Notes: generated from the letters alone by a model not told the origin. DNA of 64,000 bases from a virus (UHGV-0049167), one strand, 5' to 3'; positions 23,431-56,556 are shown, numbered from the stretch's first letter. Program-made: numbers and translations.

Positions 23431-24823
23431 CGTAGCCGTTTATATCTGTGTCTGCCTCTATATATGCTCTGAAACCGTTCGCTTCCTGCGGTTCCTGAAG
23501 ATGATACACAAGACCTCCTGTTCCAAGCGTGTATGCTCCGGCAGGCACTGTTGTTTTGCAGTAGAATCCCTTCATTGTGACCCCATTATATGTCACCGGC
23601 AGCGGTTCCGTCTCCCATTGTGAGACATTGGCTATGATATACTCGGAAGCGGGACTGTCACCGCCCGGTTTAAAAAGATACGGCTTGCCAGCCTCAATTG
23701 ATGTGACTTTGGTAAAGTGCAAGGTTTTCCCTTCTATTGAAGTATATTCCGAAACCTCCGTCCCTTCACCGAATACGCCCGCTATGTCCGTCACGTTGAA
23801 CGGCAGGCACAAAGAGTGCCAGACACCCGCACCGAACGTCCTTTTAAGCGTAACGGACACTGTCAGCCCGAGCTTTGCGCAGCTCTCTATCACGGTCTGA
23901 TTATAATGTCCGTCAGACGACTGGTCAAGAGTGACGGCAGAGAGTGGGGTGGAGGAGGCTGTCAGTCCGGCAATGTTCTCCGGAGGATATGTGAAATACC
24001 ATCGGAAACCTTTCATCGTGTTCACGCTCACGTTTGAATGGTACAGCTGTCCCGAGCTGAACAGATAGCATCCCTCGGGCAGAGCGTATATCTTGCCGTA
24101 TGAAGGATGGAACTTAAGTGAGCCGTAAGCAGGCTCAGGCGCGGCAGACACGACAGAGTCTATGTCCTCGAACACATACACACTGTCTGATGGCGGGTCA
24201 GCTGTCGGGACGACGACATAGCATTGTCCGGCATCCATGCCGTCCGTCACTTCGGTAAGCCGCAGGTTCGGGTCGTCTGTCAGACCTCCGTATGCGTAAA
24301 CTTTTGTCCCCTCACCGAACGCAGCCGCAATCTGTGCGGTGCTTAAAGAGAACGGCAGTACGAACGTGTTGTAGATGTCCTTCTTGACACCGCTTCGTTT
24401 TACCTTTACCGTCAGTCCGGTGCCTTCCACCGCGTTTACGGGTGTCTCGGACTCCTCGTCAAGAATCAGCTCGGATGTGCTGTCACGCACGCACGCCTTA
24501 TCCGGCAGGCTCTCGCATTCAAGGCGCATCCGCAGCCCTTTGTCAATTTCCAGCATATGGAGCATGACGCTTCCTTCGCGCCTCTCGTATCTCGACCAAG
24601 TATGCGTCACGGTCATTCCCATGCCCGGCAGTCCCGCATACAGTGTGATACCGCTTTCCGGCTCACCGTCTATCTGTAATATTCCCTCACCGCCATGTGT
24701 CCATTCCGCATGCCACATTCCTCCGGTTTTGGAAAAGTTCAATGTTGTCAATGTCATATACTGTCCTCCTGTTTTTTTATCATAAATATATGTTTCCGTT
24801 CGTGTCCGTGTCATCATCGTCAA
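23414..24823 (-). CDS. putative tail protein
   Basis: 469 aa, immediately downstream of the giant fibre gene. Confidence 0.4.
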   Translation of the reverse strand: MTMMTRTRTETYIYDKKTGGQYMTLTTLNFSKTGGMWHAEWTHGGEGILQIDGEPESGITLYAGLPGMGMTVTHTWSRYERREGSVMLHMLEIDKGLRMRLECESLPDKACVRDSTSELILDEESETPVNAVEGTGLTVKVKRSGVKKDIYNTFVLPFSLSTAQIAAAFGEGTKVYAYGGLTDDPNLRLTEVTDGMDAGQCYVVVPTADPPSDSVYVFEDIDSVVSAAPEPAYGSLKFHPSYGKIYALPEGCYLFSSGQLYHSNVSVNTMKGFRWYFTYPPENIAGLTASSTPLSAVTLDQSSDGHYNQTVIESCAKLGLTVSVTLKRTFGAGVWHSLCLPFNVTDIAGVFGEGTEVSEYTSIEGKTLHFTKVTSIEAGKPYLFKPGGDSPASEYIIANVSQWETEPLPVTYNGVTMKGFYCKTTVPAGAYTLGTGGLVYHLQEPQEANGFRAYIEADTDINGYGEPEQ

Positions 24824-27800
24824 TGCGATTAATCTGTATCATCTGCACCCTGTCATAATTCATGTATACGGCTGTTGTCGTTATCATGCTGCCGTAGTAT
24901 ACGGTGCCGCTTCCCGGTTGTACGATTCCGATGTTCGAGAATCTGTATACATTGCGCGAGCACCATTGTCTGGAGAAATCCACCTTTTCCGCATAGTCAT
25001 CCTCATATCGCGTATAGTCCATTGGCGGTGTGTCCATAGGCGAGCCTATCATGAACGATTCCGGATTGTCCTGCGCCCACATTCCTGTGACAGCCTGTGC
25101 CGTGGTCACATTACCCTGCTCCATGAACCATCTGCCGTTCGCGGCTCTTGCAATCTCCGGAGTGGAGGCGTAGTCACCGCTGAGATATGTGTCGTTTACG
25201 CGCCCTGCAAGATACATGTACAAAGGTGTTTTCGTGTACACATGACCATATTGGAATATGGTGTTCATTATCTGTTTGTTGCCAACGATGTCGCCTACGG
25301 TGGAGAATGTGGCCCCTGTCAGCTGCAGGCGTCCGTATTTGCTGCTGGTCTCCCACCGTTCTTCCGAGACATCCTTGCCGGACAGTCCCCACGGTCCGAG
25401 GTCATAAAGGAACGTACCGTCATTGTCATAATAGGACAGTACCATGTATGAGCCGTTATATCCCATTTTGATGTTGGTCACACCGTTAGGGTTCTTTACC
25501 TCAATCAGTCCTCCCTTTATCTCCACATGCCCCTGTCCTTCGTCCATCGTGCGGAGCATCACACCTGTAAGGGTGCCCGCCTCGTCGATTGTGGTGACTG
25601 TCTCGCCGGAGTTGTTCTGTATCTCGAAGTTGTCGGCAGTGACCTTTATGCGCTTGTGTTCAATGTCTATCCCTGTCGCCTGCAGCTCGTCGCGCGTGAT
25701 TGTCTCCGAACGCCAGTCGGTCGCCTCGCTGCCTTTCTCCAGCTTCACTCCGCATATCCAGACCTCTCCCTGTGCAGAACTGTCCGGCATGAGCCGTGCC
25801 GCTATCAGGCTCTTCCCTCCGCTTACGTCATTGCGAGTGCTCCATGTCACCTGATAACGGTTCCATCCGCTTTCAAGCGTGAACTGCACGAATCCGTCTG
25901 TCACACCTGTCTGGTTCTTCGTCCCCGGACTTGTGACCCAGTCGGTGCAGTTCGGATAGAAGTACGAGCCGATGCTGCCTGTGCCGCGCGCCCAGAATGA
26001 GAGCGTATACTGTACGCCCGGCTCGGGCACCACGTTGCGCCATGTGATGACGTCCTTGTATGATGTCCCGGCTTCGTTCACACCGTGTGCCACGCTTATT
26101 TTTTCTCCGTAAGGTGTCGTGTATGCTCCTGCCTCTACGGTATCCTGTACGGTGCATTGGCTGAAGTCCGATGTTCCTGGAAGAAGATTCGGTCTTTTAA
26201 GCCTGTCCTCCGCGCTGAGTCCCCAGTCTGTCGCGTCCGCACCTGTCTCTATCTTGGGACGCGACACGGACGAGTATCCTGATGATATGCCCTGTATATA
26301 CAGGTTACACTGCTCTACCGACGCCACAGCCTTGTCCTGTATCCTGTGTGTGGAGCTTATGCGTCCCTCGAACGTGTCCGTGGATGTTATCTGCCTCCAT
26401 GTCCCGAGATACTGCGTACTGCCGTCGGCATACCGTATCATGGGCTCCATGCCGATACGTCTGTTGCCTGATGCTGCCGGAACCGCAGATACGGTCTTGA
26501 CAAGACATGATACGGTTATTGTCTTTCCGCGCAGGCTTGACACATCCCCGATTGTGTAGACCTTGTTCCCGTTCCCTGTCAGGAATATGTCAGGAGTGGT
26601 CACCATGTTTCCGTCCTTTGCCCCAAGATAGCCGACTTTAAGGCTTATGCTGTCCGTCTCAGCCTTAATCTGCGATGAGAGTGCCATGGACGATACAGTG
26701 AAGGACAGGCGGCAGCTCACACTGCGGGTCTCCCCGCCCAGCGTTGCCTGTGCCGTAATCTGTACCCATCCCGCTCCGTATGGCACCGAACCTCCCCAGT
26801 CTGCCGTATATGTCCCTATTGCGGTTATTGTAACCTGTGCCCCGTTGCGTGACGCAAGACAGTGCATAGGCTCTATGGCGGTAATTGTGACAGTCATCTC
26901 GCGCGTGCCGAGCCATGCGCGCAGACGTGATGTCGCATCCTGCATGCTCACCACACCGTCACTGTCAGCCTCCAATGTTATGGCGGCAGGGTCAAGTGCC
27001 CATGAGAAGCCGTCCTGCCCGTCCGTGCCGGGTTCACCGTCACTTCCGTCCGCTCCGTCCTCACCGCGTATCCGTGTCCACTTATATGAGGTAACGCTTG
27101 TCGGGTCATATGAGTTGAAGTCTACGCATTGCCCGAGCCACGCGCCCGGTGTCTCACCGTTGTTTGCTGTGAACGTCTTTCCCCCGTCGTCGGAATATTT
27201 GATGTGAAGGTAGCTTGTCTTTCCGTCCGTACCGTTGGTTCCCGGTATTCCCTGCTCCCCATCATACCCTTGGAAGCGTGACCACGTGTAGTCCGAAGGG
27301 TCGTCGCTGTCTGCCTCCGTGAAGTCAACGTATGTGCCGATGTAGAGGTTGGGAACTTCTGACATTGGAGTCCCGTTGGAGTTTGCCGAGTATTTAACAT
27401 GGAAATATGTCGTACGACCGTCCTCTCCTGCGGGTCCCGGAACGCCCTGCTCCCCCTTGTCTCCTTTTTCTCCGGTATCACCCTTTATCTTTGACCATTT
27501 ATAATCGGACGGTGTTCCGCTGTCTGTAGGATTCGTGTCTGTAAGGACTCCAATCCAGTCACCGCTGTCCTCTCCGTTGTTTCCGGTAAAGGTGACGCCT
27601 CCGTCGTTAGAGTATTTGATATGGAGATAATATGTCGTGCCGTCAGTCCCATTCACGCCCGGCAAGCCCTGTTCTCCCTGTATGCCTTCAAATCTTGACC
27701 AAGTGTAGTCAGATGCATCAGTACTGTCTGTTTCTGTAAAATCGACGTAAGTACCTATGTATTTGTCAGGCGTCTCGGTCATGGGCGTACCGCTCGCGTT

Positions 27801-30800
27801 CGCAGAATACTTTATGTGGAAGTAGCTTGTACGTCCGTCCGCACCGGGTGTTCCGGGTATGCCTTGCTCGCCTTGCGGTCCTTGTAATCCTTGAAGCCCC
27901 TGCTCGCCTCTATCACCTTTGTCTCCTTTGTCGCCCTTTATCTTCAACCAAGTGTATTCTGACGAGTCTGTGCTGTCGTCAGCGTTGGTGTCTGTCATGA
28001 CGCCAATCCACGCGCCCGGTGTCTCACCGTTGTTTGCTGTGAACGTCTTTCCCCCATCATCGGAGTATTTGATGTGAAGATAATATGTAAGCCCGTCCAC
28101 ACCGTTGGTTCCCGGTATTCCCTGCTCCCCATCATACCCTTGGAAGCGTGACCACGTGTAGTCCGAAGGGTCGTCGCTGTCTGCCTCCGTGAAGTCAACG
28201 TATGTGCCGATGTAGAGGTTGGGTGTCTCGGTCATGGGATTTCCGTTCTCGTTTGAAGAATATTTCACATGGAAGTATGTGGTCTTTCCGTCATGACCGG
28301 GTGCCCCGTCTTTACCGGCTACACCGGGAATACCCTGCTCTCCTTGCGGACCCTGCGGTCCCTGTATGTTTCCGGCATTCACCCACTTGTCACCGTCCCA
28401 CACCCATAAGTCTCCGTCTATGAGCCATGCGTCACCGACCGCGTTGCCGTCCTGCGGGAGTTCGGAAGAGTCATTCTTCGAACCTTTCAGATTGAATGAA
28501 GTCCCGTCCTCTCCACGGAATTTGCTCCATGTATAGTCGGAAGGATTGTCGCTTTCCTGTGCGCTCTCTTTGTTTACGGCTATGCCTATATATTTTGTCG
28601 TGTCTGAAGGGGTCTGATACATAGGCTCACCGTCCGGACTGTCAGAGTAGGCAATCCATGTATAGAGAGTCTCACCGTCCTCGCCCTTTGCTCCCGGCAC
28701 TCCGTCCTCGCCTTTTATCTCTGACCAGGTATAGTCCGATGGATTGTCGCTTTCCTGTGCGGTATTCTTGTTATATGCGAATCCAATGTATTTCTTTCCG
28801 GAAGGGTCGTTGGATATGCCTCCTCCTTCAGCGGTGTCGGAATATCTTATCCATGTGTAAAGTGTCTTCCCGTCCTCACCGGACGGTCCTGGTACACCCT
28901 GTGGTCCCATGTCACCTTTCTCACCCTGCTGTCCGTCCATACCTCTGAAACGTGCCCATGTATAATCAGAGGGGACATCGCTCGCTGTAGGGTTAAAATC
29001 CACGCGTGTACCGATAAATACATCCGGAGTCTCACTCATGGGCACACCGTCAGGATTCGGTGAATATCTTATGTGAAAATATGTGGTTTTCCCGTCTGCT
29101 CCGTCTTCTCCAGCCGGACCCTGTATTTTTCCTGCGTTTGCCCATGCGCTGCCGTCCCATACCCACAGATAGCCGTTCACGAGATACGCGTCTCCTGTGC
29201 TGTTCCCTGTTGGCGGCAGCATGCTCTCGTCATCAACGCTTCCCTTCACAGTGAATGACGTGCCGTCCTTTCCGTCAGTACCTTTAATCCTTGACCATGC
29301 ATAGTCGCTGTAGACGAGAGCCACGTCGCTCTCCGTGCGGTCTGTGCATATGCCGAGCATGAGCCAGTCTTTTGCCGTGCTCTGGGATTTGTCCTTTGTC
29401 CAGTCGTCCGGACCGTTTCCCCATGCAAGGTGCGTGTAGCTGACAAGACCGGAAGTGTCCACATCCAGCTCGCCTCTTATCTTATTGCCGTTAGCCGCGA
29501 ACCATGTCGTGCGGTACTGGCTTAGAGAAAAACTTGTGATTCCGTTGTATTGCGCGAATGACGGACTCTCCAGCTCGGTATCCGGAGTGGAGTGGGCGGC
29601 TATTATTATCGCATGGCTGCGCGCTGTGTCGTCACCACGGTGTCCGCACAGACAAACGCTGTCACCCTCTGCAGGCTCAAGGCTGTCAGCCGCGCACGTG
29701 GCTTCAGACACTTCAATCCAATGGCACTTTCTGTCCTCACCGTCAATGTTCCGTGTTCCGCTCCCTGTTGCCGTGACAAGTCTCCACCATAGTCTGTTTC
29801 CTGCATCATATGATGTCCCCTCGGCAAGATTGGATGTCATTGCCAGAGCCTGGTCTCCGACCTTCCACATGTTCTGCACGGCTCTGCCGTCGCTGTCCTC
29901 CGCCAGCCACCACAGACGCCATGCTCCGCTTATTCTTTCGACAGAGCGTACCGTGCAGTTAGCAGCGGACAGTATCAGTTGACCTCCGACGCTGTTCAGC
30001 TCATCTATGACAAGCTCGAAGAAATGTGCCCTTCCTGTCACGGTCAGCGTTTTCATTGTGGCTTCGTCGGCAAGAAGTTTCTTCAGCCGTGCGGTACCGT
30101 CCGCATCTATGCCGTAGTCTCCGTCTCCCACAAGCAGCCCTTTGAGGAATGTTATAATATCCAAGGCTGTGTCCGGACTGTCTTTCCGCAGAAAATACTT
30201 CGCGCATTGTGCTAAAATGTCACCACGCATGCCATAAGTCAGGGATGTAAGTATCTCTGTTTTTATGGAATCGAGCTGTGCTCTGAATGAGGATTGAGAC
30301 ACGGTCAGGGTGTCTGTTAAATCCACACTTATTTCATAAAGTATGCTATCATCGGCTTTACAAGTATAGTTGCTGACATACAGAAGATGCTCTTCTTGAT
30401 TATATCTTACTGTCAGACGTGTATTTTCATTCAGCAATGAGGTGAAGTCCTCATTTAATGCCAGATATACACGGGAAAATTTTATTGAATATGTGAATTT
30501 CTCATCATTATTCCCTTTCATGTAAGCAATAAGAGCCGCATCCAGTCTTTTTTCCGCTTCCCGTATGTAGGATTCAGGAAGAGAAATGCCAGTTATGACA
30601 AATGTATCGCCTATTGACGGACGATATCCTTGTGCCGCGTTCGGCATAATGACACCAAAGGTATCTGTTTCTTTTTTTACGGCTATCCATACTTCATATT
30701 CGCTGGTGTCCTGCTGGCGTGAAACGTAACTGTTTGTATCACGTGAAGGCAGGATATAGTCTCCTTCATATTTGTCCGCATTAGAACTGTTGACCTTGCG

Positions 30801-32942
30801 AAGATTGCCTTGTGCGTCTGTCATGACAGGGTTATAGAATTTGTATCTGTCACCATCGGCATACTTGTCCACCCCGATAACGAAACGGCATGCGGCGCAG
30901 TTGCCGCTTGTCATCTCTATTGCAGCCTCTTCGCTTTCTAATGCATGCTCAAAAATATTGAAGCCTCCACTTCCGTTATATACATGTAGTTTTATATAGA
31001 AATATGAATGAAGGTATTCGTCACTATTGTCTTTAAGGACATCGCTATCATCCGTATCAAACCGTATGTCAGCTATTTCACCTATCAACTGACCTTGAAT
31101 GTTTTTTATCCCTTTTATTGTCGGGACTATATCTTCAAATGAAGTCGTCCCTTCGTGAGGGTTCAATTCATTGTATACATTATTAAATATATATTTATTT
31201 CCTGATTCATCTTCATCTTCATATGTATTATTGACTGCATTATAGTAGCGTTCCGCTCCTCCACTTTCTCTGTATATAGAGGGCATCAGGCTCTGAGAGG
31301 GAGTTATCCACTCTCTTCCTGTAATATTAATTATGGCTGGTGTGTGGTCACCGCTGTCCTCCACAACATTCCATTCACCGCCTGAGAAATCCAAATGCGA
31401 AGGCGCATACGGAACATTGTTTACATCAGACAGCGTTATTCCGCTTTTACTGTATGCGATGTTATTCCCATCTCCATATGAGAAATAATACAGTTCTCCG
31501 CCACTTTTCTGATATGTTATGGATGATTTTGCATTTAACGTCATTCCTATAGTCGCCTGGCTGTTGGTCGCTCCGCTTCCTGAGAAAATGGCGTAAGCAG
31601 TCCCTTTAATCACAACTTGAAACCATCCGCTGGCATGGAAGGTATATTCATAGTCCTTCCAACCTGACAATATTTCTATTTTATCACTTATAGAATCATC
31701 CTCATTCGGATTATAGTCGTCTCTCCATATTCCAATACTTATTGTATTTTTAAGGTTTCTGTCCCCTCCGTAGCTATTTGACGATACTTTCTGCCATGAA
31801 AGTGATAAATCTGCGTCACCGCTGATTTTTCTGAAAGTCAAAAAGGATTCATTGAAAACAAACCGAAGTTTGTCTCCCTCTTGTGCATTTATTTTCAGTC
31901 TGAAAGATATCGTGATATAGGTGTTGCCTATACCTGTTCCAAAATAGAATATGTCTGTAGCCTCCCTGTTGCTTATTACTGTGGGGCTATATGCATTATA
32001 AAAAGGAGCAGTCTGTCCGATGTCTGCGCTGGCATCCGTGTTTGACACCTTTTTAAGTCTATATGCGGTATATGGGGAACTGTTGTATTTTAGTATCTCA
32101 TTTAAGGAGATATCTGCTACTTCAGATTTGTCAATGTTCTCTGTGTCGAAACTCGCGTTGCCCTCCGCACTCATGTTTGGATAGTACCATGGCAAATTTT
32201 TTGTGCCTCCAGTACCGGTTATCCTCGTGATAATCCTGTAATTGGCATTTGTTTTCTGAATAGACAACAGAGCATTGTCATTACCATATTCTATCGGAGT
32301 TGTTATTACATTCTCTGTATATCCTACGTGGCAGGTCTTCCCTGTCCAATAATAGGCGAGTCCATATACATTATATATATCCTGTAGAGCCTCTGCAATG
32401 AACTTGTCTTCTATACTGACATCTTTGCCCTCAGAAGTTATGCCTTCGTCAATGACAATATGGAAACCTTCTTGTTTGTCTTTATTATATAGACCGCTGT
32501 AAATCAATGAATCGTTGAGCCGGGCAACAAACTCGTGTACATCACCGAAGAAATGTACTTTAGATGTGTTGCTTCTGTATCGGTCTTTATATTGGGCTTC
32601 AGTATCTTCTGTTACCACATCAAGGAAATACACGTTTTCAAGTATCTCCCTTTCACTTACAAATGTGACCTCATGTTTGTATGTTATCTCAGAATTGTCT
32701 TTGGATGATGACGGCTTTTGCCTTATATAATACTTCTCTCCGCCAAATTCTATATACTCGTTTAATGTCCATTCATTGTCAAGACATCTTGGGAATTTCA
32801 ATGTAGCCGTGAAGGTCGGTGCGCCGCCCATGCGTTGTGCGTCATAGGTGTATGTACCTATGACCGCTTTTTCTGTAGACGAAGGAAAATATTCTTTCAC
32901 TCCGTTTGTGTCACGCATTATGTATAAGCTCTTCTTCTCCAT
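24780..32942 (-). CDS. giant tail-fibre-like protein with collagen-like Gly-X-Y tracts and tandem repeated modules
   Basis: single 2720-aa ORF; repeated modules of the form GKTTYFH(I/V)KYS...DPSDYTWSRF...G-X-Y triplets...TYYLHIKYSDDGGKTFTANNGETPGAW; DNA-level direct repeat about 870 bp apart. Confidence 0.7.
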   Translation of the reverse strand: MEKKSLYIMRDTNGVKEYFPSSTEKAVIGTYTYDAQRMGGAPTFTATLKFPRCLDNEWTLNEYIEFGGEKYYIRQKPSSSKDNSEITYKHEVTFVSEREILENVYFLDVVTEDTEAQYKDRYRSNTSKVHFFGDVHEFVARLNDSLIYSGLYNKDKQEGFHIVIDEGITSEGKDVSIEDKFIAEALQDIYNVYGLAYYWTGKTCHVGYTENVITTPIEYGNDNALLSIQKTNANYRIITRITGTGGTKNLPWYYPNMSAEGNASFDTENIDKSEVADISLNEILKYNSSPYTAYRLKKVSNTDASADIGQTAPFYNAYSPTVISNREATDIFYFGTGIGNTYITISFRLKINAQEGDKLRFVFNESFLTFRKISGDADLSLSWQKVSSNSYGGDRNLKNTISIGIWRDDYNPNEDDSISDKIEILSGWKDYEYTFHASGWFQVVIKGTAYAIFSGSGATNSQATIGMTLNAKSSITYQKSGGELYYFSYGDGNNIAYSKSGITLSDVNNVPYAPSHLDFSGGEWNVVEDSGDHTPAIINITGREWITPSQSLMPSIYRESGGAERYYNAVNNTYEDEDESGNKYIFNNVYNELNPHEGTTSFEDIVPTIKGIKNIQGQLIGEIADIRFDTDDSDVLKDNSDEYLHSYFYIKLHVYNGSGGFNIFEHALESEEAAIEMTSGNCAACRFVIGVDKYADGDRYKFYNPVMTDAQGNLRKVNSSNADKYEGDYILPSRDTNSYVSRQQDTSEYEVWIAVKKETDTFGVIMPNAAQGYRPSIGDTFVITGISLPESYIREAEKRLDAALIAYMKGNNDEKFTYSIKFSRVYLALNEDFTSLLNENTRLTVRYNQEEHLLYVSNYTCKADDSILYEISVDLTDTLTVSQSSFRAQLDSIKTEILTSLTYGMRGDILAQCAKYFLRKDSPDTALDIITFLKGLLVGDGDYGIDADGTARLKKLLADEATMKTLTVTGRAHFFELVIDELNSVGGQLILSAANCTVRSVERISGAWRLWWLAEDSDGRAVQNMWKVGDQALAMTSNLAEGTSYDAGNRLWWRLVTATGSGTRNIDGEDRKCHWIEVSEATCAADSLEPAEGDSVCLCGHRGDDTARSHAIIIAAHSTPDTELESPSFAQYNGITSFSLSQYRTTWFAANGNKIRGELDVDTSGLVSYTHLAWGNGPDDWTKDKSQSTAKDWLMLGICTDRTESDVALVYSDYAWSRIKGTDGKDGTSFTVKGSVDDESMLPPTGNSTGDAYLVNGYLWVWDGSAWANAGKIQGPAGEDGADGKTTYFHIRYSPNPDGVPMSETPDVFIGTRVDFNPTASDVPSDYTWARFRGMDGQQGEKGDMGPQGVPGPSGEDGKTLYTWIRYSDTAEGGGISNDPSGKKYIGFAYNKNTAQESDNPSDYTWSEIKGEDGVPGAKGEDGETLYTWIAYSDSPDGEPMYQTPSDTTKYIGIAVNKESAQESDNPSDYTWSKFRGEDGTSFNLKGSKNDSSELPQDGNAVGDAWLIDGDLWVWDGDKWVNAGNIQGPQGPQGEQGIPGVAGKDGAPGHDGKTTYFHVKYSSNENGNPMTETPNLYIGTYVDFTEADSDDPSDYTWSRFQGYDGEQGIPGTNGVDGLTYYLHIKYSDDGGKTFTANNGETPGAWIGVMTDTNADDSTDSSEYTWLKIKGDKGDKGDRGEQGLQGLQGPQGEQGIPGTPGADGRTSYFHIKYSANASGTPMTETPDKYIGTYVDFTETDSTDASDYTWSRFEGIQGEQGLPGVNGTDGTTYYLHIKYSNDGGVTFTGNNGEDSGDWIGVLTDTNPTDSGTPSDYKWSKIKGDTGEKGDKGEQGVPGPAGEDGRTTYFHVKYSANSNGTPMSEVPNLYIGTYVDFTEADSDDPSDYTWSRFQGYDGEQGIPGTNGTDGKTSYLHIKYSDDGGKTFTANNGETPGAWLGQCVDFNSYDPTSVTSYKWTRIRGEDGADGSDGEPGTDGQDGFSWALDPAAITLEADSDGVVSMQDATSRLRAWLGTREMTVTITAIEPMHCLASRNGAQVTITAIGTYTADWGGSVPYGAGWVQITAQATLGGETRSVSCRLSFTVSSMALSSQIKAETDSISLKVGYLGAKDGNMVTTPDIFLTGNGNKVYTIGDVSSLRGKTITVSCLVKTVSAVPAASGNRRIGMEPMIRYADGSTQYLGTWRQITSTDTFEGRISSTHRIQDKAVASVEQCNLYIQGISSGYSSVSRPKIETGADATDWGLSAEDRLKRPNLLPGTSDFSQCTVQDTVEAGAYTTPYGEKISVAHGVNEAGTSYKDVITWRNVVPEPGVQYTLSFWARGTGSIGSYFYPNCTDWVTSPGTKNQTGVTDGFVQFTLESGWNRYQVTWSTRNDVSGGKSLIAARLMPDSSAQGEVWICGVKLEKGSEATDWRSETITRDELQATGIDIEHKRIKVTADNFEIQNNSGETVTTIDEAGTLTGVMLRTMDEGQGHVEIKGGLIEVKNPNGVTNIKMGYNGSYMVLSYYDNDGTFLYDLGPWGLSGKDVSEERWETSSKYGRLQLTGATFSTVGDIVGNKQIMNTIFQYGHVYTKTPLYMYLAGRVNDTYLSGDYASTPEIARAANGRWFMEQGNVTTAQAVTGMWAQDNPESFMIGSPMDTPPMDYTRYEDDYAEKVDFSRQWCSRNVYRFSNIGIVQPGSGTVYYGSMITTTAVYMNYDRVQMIQINRIDDDDTDTNGNIYL
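27138..28230 (-). repeat. two direct-repeat copies (about 220 bp each, about 870 bp apart) inside the giant gene; coordinates approximate
   Basis: near-identical DNA starting CCACGCGCCCGGTGTCTCACCGTTGTTTGCTGTGAACGTCTTTCCCCC at about 27138 and 28008, and again ACCGTTGGTTCCCGGTATTCCCTGCTCCCCATCATACCC... in both copies. Confidence 0.6.
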
Positions 32943-34426
32943 CAGGCTACATTGTTTATAGGTGCATTTTTGTTTGTGCCATCCGTAGTCTTGTTCCGTT
33001 TTGACTCTTCAGCCAATCTCATTTCCTCATCAGGAGTGGAAACGGTATTTTTTTCAATTCCCGTCTTAGTGGAAATGATACCGGATCCTTTCAGAGTGCA
33101 AAGCATCTGGTTATAAGTATTCTCATCGAACGGCTGCCACATTTTAAACTTGCAGGATATTTTCATTCTGGCAAATTCTGTTACCGCATTCGGATTCTCA
33201 CCTTTATTTACAAGTTCTTTAGCCAGTCCTTCCTTGAAAAGTCTCGCATGTTTATCCGCAAAATTCTGCCATTCTATTACGTTTTGAGCCGCACCTTCTA
33301 TATCGAAAGAACGTGTTATTTGCATTGCCAGACCGGAGATGTCCCCGCTTGACTTAACATCCTTGGGAAGGATGAATGTTACGGATGCTCCTATCTGAAT
33401 CTTGTCAAGAATGTCTTGCATCGCATTAAGCATTCCTTCATTTGTAGGTGGAGAGAGGAACTTTGCGTCTCCCTTGCCGTCAATCGATGCGTCTTGAAGC
33501 ATAATTGAACCTGCTATTTGACGGGCGTCTTCCTTAAAACGCCCTTTGAGATATAAAATCCCCCATCCATGACGCTTTTCTATTACAGTAAAGATGTTGT
33601 AAATAATCTCAAATGTTTCTATCAGATTCTGGACGTTGTTCCATGCGACATCACCGCGCTTTGTTATAAGCGGTATCTCACTGAAGCCGTGAGCCTCTTG
33701 GCTCTCTATATGCCAACCGTCAACGTTCGTCAGACGGTACAGGTTCGTGTCGTCGTATGCGTCTATGTGCTGCACGTTGTCACCGTCGGCATAATATACA
33801 CATTCCATCACCCGGTCACCGTTGTCGTCGTTGTGTGATATGATGACATATCCGTCCTCGTATGATATTATCCGCCCCCTGATTTCACCTTTATAGTTGA
33901 AATACATCAGAAGTCCGATGTCGCCAAGTCCCATCTGCCCGTATACAGCCTTTGTCCCCAATCCGTCCTGATTGCGCTCTGTCCAATGCCATTTCAGGTC
34001 AGCAAAGTTTTTTTTCAATGTTTCGGAAGGATTGCTGTCATGCAATGTAAATACTCTGGGATTGCCGCATAATGCAAGTGTCTTTTTTTGTCTTATTCTT
34101 TCTTGAAAGGCAAGAGCGGTACGCTTGAACTTTATTTCATAGAATGCTCCGTCATTGGCTTTGACACAAATTGACGGCATATTTTCGTCAAAAAGTACCT
34201 CATGGCTGTCCGGGTCAAGTTCTTTCATGAACTTGTCCTGTGTGACAATGGTCTTCATTACGTTTGGAAGCACAGCCCGACGTAAGGCGGACACATTCTC
34301 TTCCGCCCCACAGTTGTTGTCGTACACGGAATATGTACTGCTGCCTCTTGTAAACGGCTTCTTCATCAGCATTTCTTCCGGATGAGACAACAGCCATTCT
34401 ACAATTTCCTTACGTGTTCTGTTCAT
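32942..34426 (-). CDS. hypothetical structural protein (portal candidate)
   Basis: 494 aa, ATGA-coupled to upstream gene, two genes downstream of TerL; no diagnostic motif read. Confidence 0.3.
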   Translation of the reverse strand: MNRTRKEIVEWLLSHPEEMLMKKPFTRGSSTYSVYDNNCGAEENVSALRRAVLPNVMKTIVTQDKFMKELDPDSHEVLFDENMPSICVKANDGAFYEIKFKRTALAFQERIRQKKTLALCGNPRVFTLHDSNPSETLKKNFADLKWHWTERNQDGLGTKAVYGQMGLGDIGLLMYFNYKGEIRGRIISYEDGYVIISHNDDNGDRVMECVYYADGDNVQHIDAYDDTNLYRLTNVDGWHIESQEAHGFSEIPLITKRGDVAWNNVQNLIETFEIIYNIFTVIEKRHGWGILYLKGRFKEDARQIAGSIMLQDASIDGKGDAKFLSPPTNEGMLNAMQDILDKIQIGASVTFILPKDVKSSGDISGLAMQITRSFDIEGAAQNVIEWQNFADKHARLFKEGLAKELVNKGENPNAVTEFARMKISCKFKMWQPFDENTYNQMLCTLKGSGIISTKTGIEKNTVSTPDEEMRLAEESKRNKTTDGTNKNAPINNVA

Positions 34427-34959
34427 ACTGCGCTTCCTTTGTCTTTAAGTCCGTAATACTTCATGCACGCTTCTTTTGTCGGCATATAGGTACACTCTCT
34501 GTTGGTGTGTGGACATATAATGTCATGTTTCTGAGGCACGACTATTATGCGTTTTTGCGTCTGGCTGGCTTCCATCTCAAACTTATCGTTTAGTTTCACG
34601 CGGATGTCTGCCTCCATTTTCACAGCGTCCTTCGCGTCAATCTTCTTACTTTCGGCAAGAACCTTTATCTCTTTCAGCAAACGTATAAGTTCCGTCTTGT
34701 TCTGCTCACGTGTTATAAGTTCTTCGTTTACCGAGCCTATGCCGAAAGGTTCAAGCAAATCCCGTAATTTTATCATCCTCGGAGCACGATAGTGTGCTTC
34801 AGCATCCGTTGCAGTCCTGCCGTACGCCATTTTGTACGCCACAGATTTATCGGCGAACGTATCGCACAGCACAGCAAAGGCTATGTCTTTATCACTCACT
34901 GTAGCCCACTCCTGCCGTGCGCTTTTGAGTATAACCTTTATGTCGTCTTTCTTTATCAT
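34423..34959 (-). CDS. hypothetical protein
   Basis: 178 aa between TerL and portal candidate. Confidence 0.4.
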   Translation of the reverse strand: MIKKDDIKVILKSARQEWATVSDKDIAFAVLCDTFADKSVAYKMAYGRTATDAEAHYRAPRMIKLRDLLEPFGIGSVNEELITREQNKTELIRLLKEIKVLAESKKIDAKDAVKMEADIRVKLNDKFEMEASQTQKRIIVVPQKHDIICPHTNRECTYMPTKEACMKYYGLKDKGSAV

Positions 34960-34974: not shown

Positions 34975-36597
34975 TTAACTCCACAATGTGGAGTCATATA
35001 TGCTACGTCTGACGTATGTTTTACTCTCAACTTCTTCATCCCTCCCTCTCGAGAAACCTTCTTCTATCTCTGTCCCGTATTCGAGATTTACACATGGATA
35101 CATCCTTATAGCACAGGGGTCCAACAAGTCCATTGAACGTCCGTACCCAAGCCGTAAGTTCATCTGTTTCTTGTTCATAAGTCTTTTCTTTCCTGAAGGC
35201 ATGTCGATAAATCTTACGACAGCGCACTCATCCTGAAACTCATTCTCTACTGTAACTCTGAACTTCAGGTTCTGATGTGTGTATGTGGATTGCGCTACGT
35301 TATCTGCAAAAGTGATTTGCCCTCTGTTTATCATGTTTACAAGGCGGAGATAACACAGGTCTTTCATCGTCGCTGCCGTCAGGTAGTATAACCCCATTGG
35401 CTTTGTTGATGAGAGGTAAGCTATTGCGTCCGGTATGTAGTCATTGAAATACCGTCCTGCGGTGCCGTCAAATATTATGTGGCTATCCGGAGTCTCGTTT
35501 TTATCCGCGAAAATTTTTACTCTTTGCGCGTTCTCTTTAGGAGTTGTGTGGCTTACTATTAGTATGTCGGTGACATGGAAACCGTTCCATGCCAATGCCA
35601 CCATGTTGTCTGTACCATAATCAGCCAAGTCCACAGTTACCCACCTGTCTCCGTTAACGGCAGGGGCTGCCATAAAACAGTCTCTTGCCTTGTCGCTTGG
35701 TATCGGTATGTCTACGTCCTCGTCGGGGTCAGCGTTGAAGTTCCCAAGCATTGACAGTGCCATATTGCCACCTGAAGCGGCAACGCTGCCTATATAGCCA
35801 GGGTTGCGTTCCATCAAGTCTTTATTTTGTGACACCATGCCCTGATAGAACACGAACGATTTTATCAGGTGTTCATAAGAAAAATTGCCGTTTAACCTTT
35901 TTAATTTGTTTTCTATGTCTATGCGGCATTTCCGATAGACTTCCTCTTTCGTGTCACCCCAGACGACATCCTTAACCGTAGCCCCGTTTATGTAAAAATA
36001 TCTTACAACACCGTCACGTTCGGGATTTACATAGCCGTCTAATCCTACATACCAGTCAAGGAATGTTCTCGACCAATGGCTGCGCTTCGGGTTGAACGTG
36101 GCAAAGAATTTCCCGGTAAACGTCTTGCTCTGCCCACGGTTACGGGTCATCACGTATGTGAACGCCTCCCATGACATCTCGGTCAACTCGTCTATGGCTA
36201 TCGCGTCATACTCCCATCCTTTTGCACGCTCTCGCAACTTATCCATATTGGAGTCGTCGATGTACGTCAAATCGCAGAACGTGCCGATGGGGAAGCTGAT
36301 GCGCGGGCTGTCCGACTCGCGTACCTTTATATAGTCAGTACCGAACACTTGCTTGAATTTCTCCACGAAACCGCCGCCCGCCTTTTGGTTGCCAAGGCTT
36401 CGGCGGCTTATCAGGCATCGGAAATCAGGGTCGGTCATCAGTGGCTCGGCAAAGGCAAGAAGCAAGCCCAGCGACTTGCCGCCACCCGCTGCACCGCCGC
36501 CGAACACCACGTCTACATTGGTGCTGGCGAACATATGCTGGAATGGAGAATTCGGTTTCCAAGTAATGTCCTTTATGTTACTTTGACTGTCTGACAT
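34975..36597 (-). CDS. terL: terminase large subunit
   Basis: 540 aa; Walker A VVFGGGAAGGGKS, Walker B AIAIDELTE, C-terminal nuclease-like DLADYGTDNMVALAW. Confidence 0.85.
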   Translation of the reverse strand: MSDSQSNIKDITWKPNSPFQHMFASTNVDVVFGGGAAGGGKSLGLLLAFAEPLMTDPDFRCLISRRSLGNQKAGGGFVEKFKQVFGTDYIKVRESDSPRISFPIGTFCDLTYIDDSNMDKLRERAKGWEYDAIAIDELTEMSWEAFTYVMTRNRGQSKTFTGKFFATFNPKRSHWSRTFLDWYVGLDGYVNPERDGVVRYFYINGATVKDVVWGDTKEEVYRKCRIDIENKLKRLNGNFSYEHLIKSFVFYQGMVSQNKDLMERNPGYIGSVAASGGNMALSMLGNFNADPDEDVDIPIPSDKARDCFMAAPAVNGDRWVTVDLADYGTDNMVALAWNGFHVTDILIVSHTTPKENAQRVKIFADKNETPDSHIIFDGTAGRYFNDYIPDAIAYLSSTKPMGLYYLTAATMKDLCYLRLVNMINRGQITFADNVAQSTYTHQNLKFRVTVENEFQDECAVVRFIDMPSGKKRLMNKKQMNLRLGYGRSMDLLDPCAIRMYPCVNLEYGTEIEEGFSRGRDEEVESKTYVRRSIYDSTLWS

Positions 36598-36648
36598 ATT
36601 GCAAATATACTTTATGTCTATTTAGATAATGCTTTGATTTTCAACAAT

Positions 36649-36666
36649 ATTGGACATATGTCCAAT
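36649..36666. promoter_or_regulatory. perfect palindrome ATTGGACATATGTCCAAT in divergent intergenic region (operator candidate)
   Basis: 18-bp perfect inverted repeat read in the 147-bp gap between terL (minus) and the capsid module (plus). Confidence 0.45.
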
Positions 36667-36744
36667 TATAAGCTTTAATGATTTCATCTAAACGACTAAC
36701 AATCATAAATTTGCATCATGAGTTAACATTAAAACACTATATAT

Positions 36745-38195: not shown

Positions 38196-39374
38196 ATGAA
38201 ATTTGACTTTAATAGTTCAAGATACGCCAAATTCTTTTCCGACAAGAGTAACAGGCGTTTCTTGCAGACATTCATTGATACGGAAGGTATCCTTTATACA
38301 AATTATGGTTGGTATCTGACGCAGGGACGACGAGCCTCTGCACCGACGCCTACTGATAACAGTGGTGTAGCCACGTTCACGGTCAAAGCCCGTAAGGCTG
38401 AAGCCGCTCCGCTTATGGACATGCGTGCTCCACTTGGTGACAGCAACCAGATGGATAAGGAAGGTCTGAGTTTCTACAGCGCGACCATTCCCGATTTCAT
38501 CGCCCCAGGTTTTGTGGAGACTGCCATGGAACGTGAGTACCGCATCCGTCAGTTTGAACTGTTCGGTAACGATGCAGACATCGTAGCACAGTGGGTACAT
38601 GAAGTACAGATGCAGAAAGATTCTGCTGATGCCACTATGAATTATATGACCGCGCAACTTATGACCACAGGAAAGATAGATTACAGTACTATCGGACGTG
38701 GCATTAAAGCTCCGTTACATAAGGCAGACATCCCTGCGGAGAATTTTGTCAAGGCGGGTGAGAAAATATGGACTGCGGCTGACTGTAAGCTGCTTGAGCA
38801 AATGAAGAACATAGAGGACGCATACCGTGAGAAGCGCAACTATACCGGTGCGCTCGTTTGGCAGGTACCGCGTAAGATGTACTTTGAGATTATTCTCGAA
38901 AATGCACAGGTTAAAGAACTTATCGCAGACTATAAAAAGAATCCACTGGCTTATCAGGCTACTACTGAAGGTCAGTCGTTCACAGAAGTCGCTTTCCGGC
39001 AGGCTGTAATAGACTATCAGGGTGTTTCGCCTATTGAGGTCGTTACTGAGAAAGAGCGTAACAAAACTCACACATCAGACACTTTCATCCATGGATGGAA
39101 AGAGAACGTGGCGGTGCTTCGTCCAGCCGGAGACGCTGTCGAGTTTGAGTACACTGAAAATCTTGACCAGATAATGTTCAAGAAATATGGCTCCAAGGCT
39201 ATAACCAAGGTGTTTGCCCAGACAAACAACGGGTTGGCTACCCTTGTGAATACGACACTTAACAATGGACAATATCAGGAATGGCATACAGACCTGATGA
39301 TGTCAGCATGTCCGGCTCTCATCGAGTTCCCTGACCATCTGATTGTAGACACATCAACAGCCGACACGGAATAA
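38196..39374 (+). CDS. putative major capsid protein
   Basis: 392 aa; size and position (after scaffold-like gene, before connector-sized genes); no motif-level proof. Confidence 0.45.
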   Translation: MKFDFNSSRYAKFFSDKSNRRFLQTFIDTEGILYTNYGWYLTQGRRASAPTPTDNSGVATFTVKARKAEAAPLMDMRAPLGDSNQMDKEGLSFYSATIPDFIAPGFVETAMEREYRIRQFELFGNDADIVAQWVHEVQMQKDSADATMNYMTAQLMTTGKIDYSTIGRGIKAPLHKADIPAENFVKAGEKIWTAADCKLLEQMKNIEDAYREKRNYTGALVWQVPRKMYFEIILENAQVKELIADYKKNPLAYQATTEGQSFTEVAFRQAVIDYQGVSPIEVVTEKERNKTHTSDTFIHGWKENVAVLRPAGDAVEFEYTENLDQIMFKKYGSKAITKVFAQTNNGLATLVNTTLNNGQYQEWHTDLMMSACPALIEFPDHLIVDTSTADTE

Positions 39375-48275: not shown

Positions 48276-48623
48276 TTGTCGCCAAACAAACCTTATAATA
48301 CGATAATGCCTACCGTAGAAGTGCCGAGGCGTATGACTCCGACCTACGATAGGCATTATTATTTAAATAAGATTTGTTTGGCATCTGCAAATTTAAAAAA
48401 ATTTTTTGATATGACAAGATTTTCAGGGAAGAATAGACGAGAAAGTACAATAATTCGTGATAACAATGTTCATAAGCTGTATCACGATTTATGTTTAGAG
48501 CTTGGCAATGTGTCAACAGTTGTCTCAAAGCAATATATTTATGAACGGATAAGCGAAAAAATTGGACTGGGACGGCAAACTATAGCATTTATCCTTAACC
48601 ACACAAAACCAACAAAAAAATAG
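48276..48623 (+). CDS. hypothetical protein (AT-rich, doubtful)
   Basis: 115-aa ORF in AT-rich gap after the tape measure gene. Confidence 0.25.
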   Translation: MSPNKPYNTIMPTVEVPRRMTPTYDRHYYLNKICLASANLKKFFDMTRFSGKNRRESTIIRDNNVHKLYHDLCLELGNVSTVVSKQYIYERISEKIGLGRQTIAFILNHTKPTKK

Positions 48624-52018: not shown

Positions 52019-52543
52019 TTACAATCCCTTTCTCCTCCCATACTCACATATCAGCAAGGCGTCGCACTTGTTGTCGTCATCGTCCTTGCATCTCTCTGTC
52101 CTACGGAAGTCTATGCGGGGGAAAAGACGCTTTCCCGCGTTCAGCGAGGTTTTTTTTGTATCAATCCTCCTGAGGGTCTTCCCGTTTGTACATTTCGACT
52201 TATACTCCTTATCTTGATTAATCCATATCTCACCCTGCCATATCTTAGGCTGAACAAGATGGTATGGAATACCCAATGCTGTAAGAATCCCTATAAGTAT
52301 TCCATTGATTTTTCCAAATGCGAATGTAGATTTTGCAGACGAGCCTAATATTGCATGTACTTCTTCCATACAGCATACGACGTTACAGTCGCTTGCAAAA
52401 ATTATACCTTTAAGAAAGTCCACAATCTTTGCATATCCGGCATCCTTTATCGAAAGGAAGTCTTTCATCCCGTTCGCATACATTACGGCTATGAACCCTG
52501 CACTTCCAGGGTCTATCCCTATATAAACTCTTCCGCTATCCAT
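52019..52543 (-). CDS. RuvC-like Holliday junction resolvase
   Basis: 174 aa; N-terminal VYIGIDPGSAGFIAVMY matches the RuvC-fold first catalytic motif. Confidence 0.6.
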   Translation of the reverse strand: MDSGRVYIGIDPGSAGFIAVMYANGMKDFLSIKDAGYAKIVDFLKGIIFASDCNVVCCMEEVHAILGSSAKSTFAFGKINGILIGILTALGIPYHLVQPKIWQGEIWINQDKEYKSKCTNGKTLRRIDTKKTSLNAGKRLFPRIDFRRTERCKDDDDNKCDALLICEYGRRKGL

Positions 52544-52572
52544 TCGTCAGTATTTTGTGTTGTATAGTGTTT

Positions 52573-53058
52573 TTACAGTGTATTCTGCTCATTGACCTCA
52601 TTTTTCTTATTATTCCCGTCAGCCTTGCCTTTATCGACCTTAATCTCAACAAACTCTCCTTTTCCGAGCCTCGCCCTGTTTATGCAATCGCCAATCCATT
52701 GCAACAGGTAAGACAAATGTTCGTTGTGCCCTCCATATTCTCGTGCCAATGGCAATACGTTCATAAAAGCGTCAAATACGTGTGAAGCCTCATGGCAGAT
52801 ATTACCCATTGTCATGTTTGTCTTGCCTTTGAAAACCACCAGTTCGCCATACTTGCCGTCCGCTTTCGAACATACTTCTGTAAAAGTCGTTGCAAAACAG
52901 TCCTTGTCATCCCATTTAATCTCATCTCCGTCATGCTCCGTGAAGCAACTCTGTATCTCCGCCCCTGTGGCCTGTGGCATCACCCACAGCTTTCTCGGAT
53001 ATATCACCGGGTCGTATTCATAATAGCCTTTCTTCATACTTTTTCCTTTACACACCAC
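52573..53058 (-). CDS. hypothetical protein
   Basis: 161-aa ORF. Confidence 0.4.
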   Translation of the reverse strand: MVCKGKSMKKGYYEYDPVIYPRKLWVMPQATGAEIQSCFTEHDGDEIKWDDKDCFATTFTEVCSKADGKYGELVVFKGKTNMTMGNICHEASHVFDAFMNVLPLAREYGGHNEHLSYLLQWIGDCINRARLGKGEFVEIKVDKGKADGNNKKNEVNEQNTL

Positions 53059-53095
53059 TTAAATTTGTTCCATAATCCTTCTTTCATAAGCAATA

Positions 53096-53308
53096 TCATT
53101 TGTTTGTCGTTTGTTTCCCTATATGATACATCGAACATACCTTGCATTGGTAAATCCCATACCCTTGCAGCCCCTTGGCCTCTATAAACGCCTCGGCCTC
53201 GTCCTTGCTCCGAAAGCCGCGCTTCGCCACGCCGCGCTTGTTATAATGGCACCTGCGGCTCGGCTTCCGCTCAAACGGCTGCTTGCATATATGTAGCTTT
53301 ATCGCCAT
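53096..53308 (-). CDS. hypothetical small basic protein
   Basis: 70 aa, Cys pairs (CKQP...CKVCSMYH). Confidence 0.3.
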   Translation of the reverse strand: MAIKLHICKQPFERKPSRRCHYNKRGVAKRGFRSKDEAEAFIEAKGLQGYGIYQCKVCSMYHIGKQTTNK

Positions 53309-53368
53309 TCCGATTTAATAAGAACGGTGCAAGCTCAAAGCCCACACCGCCTTAATTTTACTTCCACG

Positions 53369-53797
53369 TCAGACTGGTTTGTTAGAAAGCTGGCTCATAC
53401 GCTCGTCAAGTACATCAAGGTAGCCTTGCATAATACCCTCCTGCTTAGAAAGCAGCTTCCTTTGGTACTCATCAGTAACCGTCTCCAAGAATTTCGGAGA
53501 CTCTATGAACGAACGTAGCTTAGTGAGCTTGTCATGCAGTTCCGTACGCTCGATATAAAGACGGTCAAGAAACGTGTCAGCGCGCTTGTACGCTTTGTCA
53601 AACGGTTCAGCAGGCGACCAGCTTTCATAACCGTCTTGATAGCGGACATGATAACCAGCGTTTGACTTCTCGTTTTCGTTAGGCACTCGGCCTGCTTGCA
53701 GCAATCCTTTCTCGTAAGCCTCGCCCATAGTCATAGGTTCGGCTTCAATCTGTTTTGTTCCGATGTACTTTTTCATAATTATTTGTTTTATATCCAA
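53369..53797 (-). CDS. hypothetical protein
   Basis: 142-aa ORF. Confidence 0.4.
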   Translation of the reverse strand: MDIKQIIMKKYIGTKQIEAEPMTMGEAYEKGLLQAGRVPNENEKSNAGYHVRYQDGYESWSPAEPFDKAYKRADTFLDRLYIERTELHDKLTKLRSFIESPKFLETVTDEYQRKLLSKQEGIMQGYLDVLDERMSQLSNKPV

Positions 53798-54357
53798 TGT
53801 ATAGTTGGTGTTCCATTAAATCCTTTTTCAAATACAAACCAAGCGTAGCATACAGCTCCGTTCCCGTACCTCTCAAAGTCGCCGTTCTTCGCGCAGCTCA
53901 CCCTCTTCGAGAACACCCATATCCTGCTCGGCGGCGTCCTCTCAAACAGCTTTCTGCGCTCCTGACCCTCTAAAAACGTCAGCTTCAGCAGCATGGCAAC
54001 CTTGCGGCCATCGCCGACACACTCAAGAGCCTTATCCACGAAACGCTGCGCGTATTTATACGGTGGATTGGTAACGATGTCGCCTTCCCATTCCTCCGCA
54101 CAAGAGAGAAAATCCATCCTCTCATTGCCAATCCTGTCTATTATGTCGCTCTTCCGCACCTCGTAACCGTGCTTTTCCAGCACTCCCGATATGTGTCCCA
54201 GCCCTACGCACGGCTCCCATATCATGCGGTCAAAGTCCTCCACCGCGAGCAATGCCTCGACCGCCTTCGGGTCTGTTACGTACAAGTCCTCCGGCTGGCG
54301 TTCTTCTTTTGTGTGGTTGCTCGCCCCCAAAGGGGCAAATACGCATTTGTCACTCAT
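53788..54357 (-). CDS. small DNA methyltransferase (NPPY-type, N6-adenine or N4-cytosine)
   Basis: 189 aa; SAM-binding-like EPCVGLGHI and catalytic DIVTNPPYK; no adjacent restriction endonuclease recognised. Confidence 0.65.
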
Positions 54358-54881: not shown

Positions 54882-54904
54882 TTTTACCTCCTTTTTTATT
54901 TTTA

Positions 54905-55288
54905 TTATTCCAAACACAATTCATAGCCGTCATCGGCCAACAGGCTGCTCCCGTCATCGGCTAAGACACGCAGGTCGTTGTCAATGGGAATGTCCTTAGC
55001 CTCGCCGCCAAGTTCCATGACCTTGCAAGCCGTCACCGGGCTTGAACTTTGTATGGTTACCTCCATACCGGCCACGCCTTCTATTCGTACTATCACCGAT
55101 TCATTCTCGTAATAGCCCTTTGGCAAGTAAACCGGGGCGGGGCGTAAGCCTCCAATGCTCTTGTAAACATACAGCCCACCTTTTCTTGAACGTACTATAT
55201 GTACGTCAATGGTATCCGCATCGGGGCTTAACGTACATTTGTACGCCCCTTCTCCTGTCCTTACAAATTCTGTTGTCGTCATTGCCAT
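54905..55288 (-). CDS. hypothetical protein
   Basis: 127-aa ORF. Confidence 0.4.
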
Positions 55289-56553: not shown

Positions 56554-56556
56554 GGC

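Follow-up and report, generated by a model that had tools for sequence, protein, structure and literature searches.

Layout of the locus and its promoters

The window, a stretch of 64,000 nucleotides from virus UHGV-0049167, holds two late transcription units that run away from each other, with a palindrome in the gap between them (Table 1). The first-pass annotation had described this divergent layout, and comparison with related phages bears it out. The gap between the terL start and the next plus-strand ORF indeed measures 147 bp, and the palindrome, read directly from the sequence, is symmetric at 18 of 18 positions. The identities assigned earlier to terL, the portal, and the major capsid protein are supported by PHROGs. 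The first ORF of the plus-strand unit, which had been called a scaffold gene, had no match in Pfam or PHROG; it is kept in all relatives, and its homologues were found in 97 and 72 loci.

Table 1. Features of the window that are discussed in the text, with their positions.
Feature	Position	Strand	Basis or remark
XRE-type HTH fused to an M78 (ImmA/IrrE-like) peptidase	16248..17303	-	Pfam scan
2720-aa ORF after portal	24780..32942	-	single ORF
178-aa ORF between terL and portal	34423..34959	-	N-terminal segment TerS-HTH-like, by eye only
terL, large terminase	34975..36597	-	PHROG 979 terminase large subunit, E 4.7e-50
Minus-strand late operon, order: terL (first), 178-aa ORF, portal, 2720-aa ORF, fibers, lysis genes		-	ORF list
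-7 box TATATTTG, Bacteroidota-type, putative terL operon promoter	36602..36609	-	sequence
Family-wide 20-bp frame TATTGGACAT/ATGTCCAATT	36648..36667		dyad center between 36657 and 36658
Perfect 18-bp palindrome ATTGGACATATGTCCAAT	36649..36666	.	sequence
-7 box TAAATTTG, Bacteroidota-type, putative head/tail operon promoter	36706..36713	+	sequence
First gene of plus-strand late operon, 215 aa	36745..37392	+	begins MKF
Plus-strand operon after the first gene, order: 250-aa ORF, major capsid protein, connector genes, tail tube, tape measure		+	
Major capsid protein	38196..39374	+	PHROG major head protein match
105-aa HTH-like ORF after tape measure	48306..48623	+	
Minus-strand DNA-metabolism module	52019..58238	-	
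70-aa Cys-rich ORF	53096..53308		
Candidate reader, 117-aa stand-alone DnaA-domain-IV-like protein	55787..56140	-	fold match
Non-coding stretch, ~2.3 kb	58239..60500		
Near-perfect palindrome TTAACGCGTATATATAAATATATTTATATAGTACGCGTTAA, ~40 bp	58647..58687		one indel
AT-only palindrome	58655..58674		
HigB-like toxin	60971..61288		
HigA-like HTH antitoxin	61297..61632		Pfam scan

Two of the genes in the leftward unit differ in size between phages. In many relatives (L079-L124, L244-L253, L260-L262, and L266), the terL product is about 888 aa long and carries an insertion of ~350-390 aa after residue ~41, with matches to Hom_end/LAGLIDADG; the terL of the window is without this insertion, which resembles an intein or homing endonuclease that has entered close to where the ATPase domain starts. 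The ORF that follows the portal is a single 2720-aa ORF in the window, and the ORFs found there in relatives encode 1300-2150 aa. Its distal two thirds (~23-30 kb of the window) have a G+C content of 52-56%, compared to 39-45% in the flanks.

Bacteroidota promoters consist of a -7 element, TAnnTTTG, and a weaker -33 element, TTTG (PMC7366714). A -7 box of the sigma-A type lies on either side of the palindrome; the two boxes face away from each other, and in the window, each of them starts 48 bp from the dyad center. The TAAATTTG box is located 31 nt before the ATG of the first plus-strand gene. Among 33 non-redundant relatives, the consensus is gTAttTTTGCa for the box on the terL side and tTAt.TTTGCa for the one on the head/tail side; both share TAnnTTTGC, which matches the motif published for Bacteroides (PMC7366714). 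At the -33 positions of the window, the terL promoter is without a TTG, and the head/tail promoter has TTTC; several relatives have a TTG 22-23 nt upstream of the -7 box. A scan for the sigma-70 consensus was left out of the promoter calls, as it is not applicable to Bacteroidota. The palindrome overlaps neither the -7 boxes nor the -33 regions. If transcription starts ~5 nt after each TTTG, the dyad center would be located at about -60.5 of both starts, a placing that follows from this assumed distance between the -7 box and the start.

In the window and in most relatives, the ATG of terL is only 4-6 nt past the TTTG of its -7 box (TATATTTG-CAAT-ATG in the window and TATCTTTG-CAGC-ATG among the relatives L045-L131 that were compared). 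This short distance suggests that the terL mRNA would be leaderless or nearly so; 5' UTRs of <10 nt make up only about 3.7% in B. thetaiotaomicron (PMC7366714).

The palindrome within the window

With up to 3 mismatches allowed, the palindrome ATTGGACATATGTCCAAT still occurs a single time in the window; its exact sequence was found in IMG/VR solely on a contig of the same phage. The first-pass annotation had proposed a search for additional copies of the half-site TTGGACAT; the window has none, the half-site being present solely at the palindrome. The more general motif ATTKG-N8-CMAAT and the half-site ATTKGACA also showed no enrichment elsewhere in the window. The absence of additional half-sites makes the palindrome a single-target site, and the absence of motif enrichment means that there is neither a regulon nor an iteron array.

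In first-order Markov simulations of 64 kb, the expected number of perfect palindromes with arms of at least 9 bp was 0.26 per window, and 22% of the simulations contained at least one. The window contains a second palindrome of this class, which is AT-only. With the window taken alone, the 18-bp palindrome is not strongly improbable. Because the significance within the window is weak, the significance of the palindrome rests on the relatives.

Conservation of the site in related phages

The 3.5 kb surrounding the palindrome had no match among deposited phages at the DNA level, and no phages of this group were found in the deposited-phage collection; the nearest deposited TerL proteins (Parabacteroides phages, LoVEphage) are 25-28% identical to that of the window. 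The lineage is common in human-gut metagenomes, with 1474 database proteins in the tail-chaperone family at E <= 1e-10. Relatives are abundant in these metagenomes and were also found in Prevotella and Bacteroidales MAGs, which points to a host in the Bacteroidota, probably Prevotella. One homologue of a window protein is located on a 376-kb contig; the element may thus also occur integrated or as part of a larger replicon.

Related loci were gathered via TerL, a conserved 171-aa protein from the tail region, and exact-protein look-ups. Among the 172 loci with the same back-to-back layout, there were 103 different intergenic sequences and 46 different central dyads. Of the 78 distinct regions in the first locus set, 77 have their -7 boxes at a distance of 96-99 bp. 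The dyads were located by scoring every offset within 35 bp on either side of the midpoint between the boxes (141 offsets tried); the best dyad was at most 1 bp from this midpoint in 27 of the 34 non-redundant loci. Measured from the dyad center, the box on the terL side is 48-50 bp away and the one on the other side, wherever a box was detected, 48-49.5 bp; the geometry departs from this pattern in two lineages, L185/L186 and L188. The spacer DNA between the dyad and the boxes is not conserved in the relatives compared. Distant groups have the usual spacing with palindromes that are unrelated in sequence (TTAGTACACCGGTGTACTAA, TTATCACTGGTGATAA, CATTCACTGGTGAACG, GTTCATATATGAAC, and GTATTTCACCAGTGAAATAC).

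Lack of conservation in related phages had been named beforehand as the finding that would speak against a function of the palindrome. What the relatives keep is its position and its dyad symmetry, not its letters, and this outcome favors function. As in other dyad-symmetric sites of divergent promoters, the two-fold symmetry is present, and the position is fixed relative to both core promoters.

In the group to which the window belongs, the half-site reads T-A-T-T-[G/T]-G-[A/T]-[C/T]-A-N from the outside to the center. In most of the 46 dyad variants, 7-10 of the 10 mirrored positions match. At inner positions 2-5, the agreement between arms was 0.83. In 5000 shuffles that re-paired arms between phages, it averaged 0.65 and never exceeded 0.77 (0/5000 reached the observed value). 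Judged from these comparisons, the dyad symmetry is selected, with the two arms changing together. Template-switch mutation at quasi-palindromes could partly maintain the likeness of the arms without selection on each arm.

A probable shared site for both late promoters

The fixed geometry and the conserved symmetry make it very likely that the palindrome is a functional protein-binding site common to both promoters. With less assurance, we consider it probable that the site is a cis-regulatory element for a two-fold symmetric, phage-encoded DNA-binding protein that would jointly control the two divergent late promoters. The proposal in the first-pass annotation that one symmetric regulator co-controls both operons remains the best reading of the comparative evidence.

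In the mechanism that we propose, the bound site would recruit or stabilize RNA polymerase at both promoters together, in the manner of a class I activator. By its symmetry, the protein would present an equivalent surface to each polymerase, and the packaging genes to the left and the head and tail genes to the right would be switched on together. Activators that touch polymerase from the upstream side are classically centered near -60.5. We slightly favor a putative activator over a repressor or another role, on account of a predicted center at about -60.5 that is clear of the core promoter elements, and of a terL promoter without a -33 TTG; a predicted site at about -60.5 can also repress. 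A literature search for a described equivalent of a shared late operator returned nothing relevant, and to our knowledge almost nothing is known about the timing of late genes in non-crAss phages of Bacteroidota.

Candidates for the protein that reads the site

Pfam scans, which covered about 60 of the 75 ORFs in the window, returned only two clear HTH proteins, the XRE-M78 fusion and HigA. The former is encoded at the distal end of the minus-strand late/lysis block, and the phage part of the window has no other classical HTH regulator; the related loci that were gathered do not extend to its region. An integrase or S24-type repressor was not found among the ~60 of 75 window ORFs scanned. In two relatives (L269 18951..20543 and L271 18948..20546), an integrase (Phage_int_SAM_5) and an S24-peptidase repressor follow directly after the tape measure gene, which suggests that parts of this phage group are temperate. 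The dyads in these two relatives are of another type, TTAGAA-N8-TTCTAA in L271 and the shorter TAGAA-N10-TTCTA in L269.

The 105-aa HTH-like ORF after the tape measure gene was rejected as a family-wide regulator, since it is not conserved in relatives. In the closest relative, this slot is occupied by a different gene, of the HTH_3 (XRE) type (L254 17389..17649); the slot appears variable and moron-like. The N-terminus (MKF...) of the first head-operon gene is unlikely to set specificity, because it is conserved where the sites are unrelated in sequence.

The 178-aa ORF between terL and the portal had no match in Pfam or PHROG, terminase-small included. It was rejected as the reader because its HTH-like segment does not co-vary with the site and some relatives do without its N-domain. 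The segment, DKTLAYRLAYRK, is identical in six lineages with differing inner sites. In phages L128 and L108, the protein is reduced to its C-terminal part; their sites (TATTGGAGATATATCCAATA and TATTGGTCATGTGACCAATA) have the usual spacing and keep the canonical TATTGG..CCAATA. This C-terminal part is strongly conserved (RVKLNDKF...KHDI[IV]CPHTNREC..P.KEAC, with three invariant Cys) and may be metal-binding.

Our proposed reader is the 117-aa stand-alone protein, whose fold matches the DNA-binding domain of DnaA; the chance that it reads the palindrome falls, in our estimate, a little short of even. The domain IV fold is present with its HTH and the preceding basic loop. In sequence searches, the protein had no match in Pfam at E <= 0.01 (Bac_DnaA_C included), a profile of five sequences had no match among PDB sequences at E <= 10, and a single-sequence scan of IMG/VR had none either. 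The family is small, with 57 proteins in a database of 5.8 billion proteins, and no Pfam domains were found among these 57 homologues. Members of the family occupy the syntenic position in near relatives, and a profile search recovered diverged ones from that position in the distant groups too. In L234-243, L260-262, L269, and L271, the 10 kb covered did not show the gene. A better reader may exist among the early genes of the relatives, of which the analysis covered a minority.

The gene for the 117-aa protein is part of a DNA-metabolism module that sits across the tail genes from the palindrome. Its other genes are one that is methyltransferase-like, one that, by eye, is RuvC-like, and several unknown ones. 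The relatives keep this module, in an orientation convergent with the tail operon. Upstream of it is the ~2.3-kb non-coding stretch with the near-perfect palindrome TTAACGCGTATATATAAATATATTTATATAGTACGCGTTAA, which could be an early operator or an origin. The HigB-like toxin and HigA-like antitoxin are encoded beyond this stretch.

The family motif G-M-x-x-x-S-V-[IM]-[KR]-x-V-R-K was aligned by hand to R-D-H-T-T-V-L-H-A-C-R-K of E. coli DnaA. In this alignment (NVSSVIKKVRKV to E. coli DHTTVLHACRKI), we take a hypervariable triple in the 117-aa protein (N80-V81-S82) to be the equivalent of D433-H434-T435, and the conserved G-K-K-N-I-P loop would presumably match the basic loop of DnaA. The triple is located at the start of the predicted recognition helix, just before an invariant S-V. 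The two parts of the DnaA box are recognized differently: TnCACA, on the 3' side, by the helix of residues 434-451, inserted into the major groove, and TTA, on the 5' side, by a loop with Arg399 through the minor groove (PMC5742627). By analogy to the DnaA box, the GKKNIP loop of the candidate would use the minor groove to read TATT, the conserved and A/T-rich outer part of the half-site, and the recognition helix, with the hypervariable triple at its start, would read the variable inner bases. Two copies of the protein would be placed head to head across the dyad, one for each half-site of 9-10 bp. DnaA domain IV binds asymmetric boxes as a monomer, and no dimerization domain is evident in the 117-aa protein.

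Co-variation between protein and site

Three of the 73 variable columns of the 117-aa protein follow the site type, compared to a background of ~0.8% in other proteins. This signal is weak (uncorrected P ~0.02); two of the columns, at positions 80 and 81, are adjacent. Fifteen lineages supply both a protein of this family and a site (Table 2).

Table 2. Hypervariable triple of the 117-aa family and half-sites in the same lineages.
Triple	Lineages	Half-sites
NVS / NVT	window, L153, L143 (three different protein sub-clades)	GACAT
KAT	L139/L222	GCTAT / GGCAT
VRE	L146	GTCAG
NRE	L257, L263	GATAG, other arm GTATG or GACTG
ERN	L142	GAATG / GAGTG
SVR	L267	GTCAC
TQR	L273	GTCAT / GTCAC
NPR, APR, QPR, SRR	L201, L195, L157, L186 (distant groups)	..CAC
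RKN	L184 (fifteenth lineage)	..CAC

The third residue of the triple goes with the innermost base of the half-site: R is found with C, E with G, and S or T with T. This rule explains 26 of the 30 half-sites. When labels were permuted, P was 1.3e-4 for the 15 lineages, which share ancestry and are not fully independent, and 0.035 for the 10 lineages conservatively counted as independent. The rule agrees with common contact preferences, Arg favoring the G that faces C and Glu the C that faces G. For the predicted reader, the co-variation of the triple with the site is suggestive, not proof. A wider proposal, which we offer tentatively and think more likely to fail than to hold, is that a stand-alone DnaA-domain-IV family, not described before, acts as the master switch of late genes in a large clade of gut Prevotella phages that are uncultured, paired on inverted, DnaA-box-like half-sites at about -60.5 of both promoters, with a specificity that is set by the triple, its third residue (R, E, or S/T) reading the innermost base (C, G, or T). 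Under this proposal, each phage lineage would have a private late-gene operator.

Alternative explanations

The site could be bound by a global regulator that is encoded by the host, with the late genes of the phage plugged into a host signal. The outer TATTGG/CCAATA, kept in many relatives, would fit such a protein. Very close relatives, however, differ in the site (L003 has ATTCGCCAcaTGGCGAAT and L104 has ATTTATCActaTGATAAAT, in flanks that are largely alignable by eye), and these two also differ in the parity of the dyad spacing. Moreover, 46 variants are found in one habitat, and the variation in the site tracks a phage protein. We consider a host regulator unlikely, though it fares better than the other alternatives.

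Slightly less probable again is an origin-type element, at which the DnaA-domain-IV-like protein or the DnaA of the host would start replication, with the promoters merely flanking it. The candidate reader has the fold of an initiator DNA-binding domain, but it is without an AAA+ domain. The half-sites of distant relatives resemble DnaA boxes (TTATCAC compared to TTATnCACA), whereas TATTGGACAT, the half-site of the window, does not qualify as one. The cumulative GC skew is lowest at 36-37 kb, a minimum that the switch in coding strand explains equally well. The intergenic DNA is A/T-rich; however, it contains only one dyad, with no iterons or repeated boxes, and the replication genes are located elsewhere, at 1-16 kb. 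Finally, the spacing to the boxes is kept to within 1-2 bp and the sequence of the spacers is free, a pattern that fits the geometry of polymerase.

The first-pass annotation had also offered a packaging-related recognition sequence next to terL, that is, a pac- or cos-like site to which the small terminase binds to start DNA packaging. We found no support for this role and rate it as quite improbable. The palindrome does adjoin terL, the 178-aa ORF with its TerS-like HTH (by eye) is syntenic in all relatives, and in some phages, such as SPP1, pac lies within the promoter region of the terminase operon. Yet the TerS-like segment does not track the site: it stays the same despite different inner sites, and the two phages without the TerS-like N-domain keep canonical sites. 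The 178-aa ORF also has no terminase-small match in Pfam or PHROG. The site is a single dyad and not an array of repeats, and its symmetry is about two promoters, with an equal distance to the two -7 boxes for which packaging gives no rationale.

The least probable alternative, an RNA hairpin or DNA cruciform that acts without a sequence-specific protein, or else a functionless chance palindrome, would account for the co-variation between the arms, as expected of a stem, for a hairpin that folds better than shuffled sequences (z = -2.75), and for an 18-bp palindrome in 64 kb when taken alone (P ~0.22), but chance is excluded by the conservation across 103 distinct regions, the site is upstream of both predicted promoters and so expected in neither transcript, the alternation of G and T at position 6 shows that C-T mismatches are tolerated, 34 of 67 mirrored mismatches (37 variants) are non-wobble on either strand, the wobble classes are balanced between the strands (19 vs. 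14), the outer bases are conserved as sequence beyond what pairing alone would explain, and a DNA hairpin would have a 7-bp stem of only -4.8 kcal/mol. An Rfam search gave no match at E <= 1, and a terminator scan reported nothing resembling a terminator at the palindrome.

Comparison with known systems

The reading that we prefer, a symmetric site for a phage protein that serves both late promoters, describes a kind of element that is well known. What is new is the setting, the control of late genes in an undescribed and abundant group of gut phages of Prevotella. The reader, if confirmed, would be new too. The element provides a precise model of one symmetric site, two promoters, and a fixed geometry. 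If the DnaA-domain-IV-like protein is the reader, the DNA-binding module of an initiator would have been recruited as a phage transcription factor. These phages would then provide a natural series of matched pairs of protein and operator with a simple specificity code, as well as orthogonal regulatory parts for the genetics of Bacteroidota. If the 117-aa protein is not the reader, the conserved putative operator remains a solid starting point from which to identify the true regulator.

The operators of Cro and CI in lambdoid phages (434, P22) overlap the core promoters, repress, occur in arrays of two or three, and are bound by dimers of XRE-type HTH proteins. The palindrome resembles them in size and in having a conserved outer and a variable inner part. 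A further likeness, for the predicted reader, is that specificity diverges with the recognition helix between related phages, as in immunity. In contrast, there is one site here, well upstream of both promoters, and the sole XRE proteins in the window, the XRE-M78 fusion and HigA, have no established link to the palindrome.

Compared to DnaA domain IV on its 9-bp box (PDB 1J1V, 3PVP) and to DnaA in its role as a transcription factor, the candidate is a stand-alone protein of 117 aa without an AAA+ domain or a match to Bac_DnaA_C. Its putative sites are inverted pairs, whereas DnaA boxes are single or direct, and its triple is hypervariable, whereas D-H-T is conserved in DnaA. Its proposed role is in the control of late genes and not in replication. 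Set against the 9-bp DnaA box TTATnCACA, the half-sites measure 9-10 bp and are A/T-rich toward the outside; they read TTATCAC and TTAGTACAC in distant relatives and TATTGGACAT in the window.

The late promoters of P2, 186, and P4 depend on Ogr, B, and Delta, small phage activators that bind a dyad upstream of the core promoter. In P2, each late promoter has its own TGT-N12-ACA, centered near -55, and the activator is a zinc-finger protein. No Ogr/Delta-type Pfam match was found among the ~60 of 75 window ORFs scanned, and the 70-aa Cys-rich ORF had no Pfam match. The site in the window differs from the P2 sites in that the single-copy TATTGGACAT/ATGTCCAATT, placed at about -60.5 by the assumed start points, is common to both promoters and does not have the TGT-N12-ACA pattern. 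The late regions are alike in their organization: the operon with the terminase large subunit and portal genes faces the operon with the scaffold and capsid genes, so that the head genes are divergent.

The element would work like the class I activator sites, such as that of CRP at -61.5 of lac, and the single activator sites shared by divergent promoters. The present case differs in its Bacteroidota host, with -33/-7 promoters and another sigma-A, and its position is predicted from the -7 boxes. The palindrome is unrelated to the TGTGA-N6-TCACA of CRP, and no Crp/Fnr-type protein was found in the window. In both cases, a dyad of ~18-22 bp has its center, here by prediction, ~60 bp before the start and outside the core promoter, and one symmetric site can serve two back-to-back promoters.
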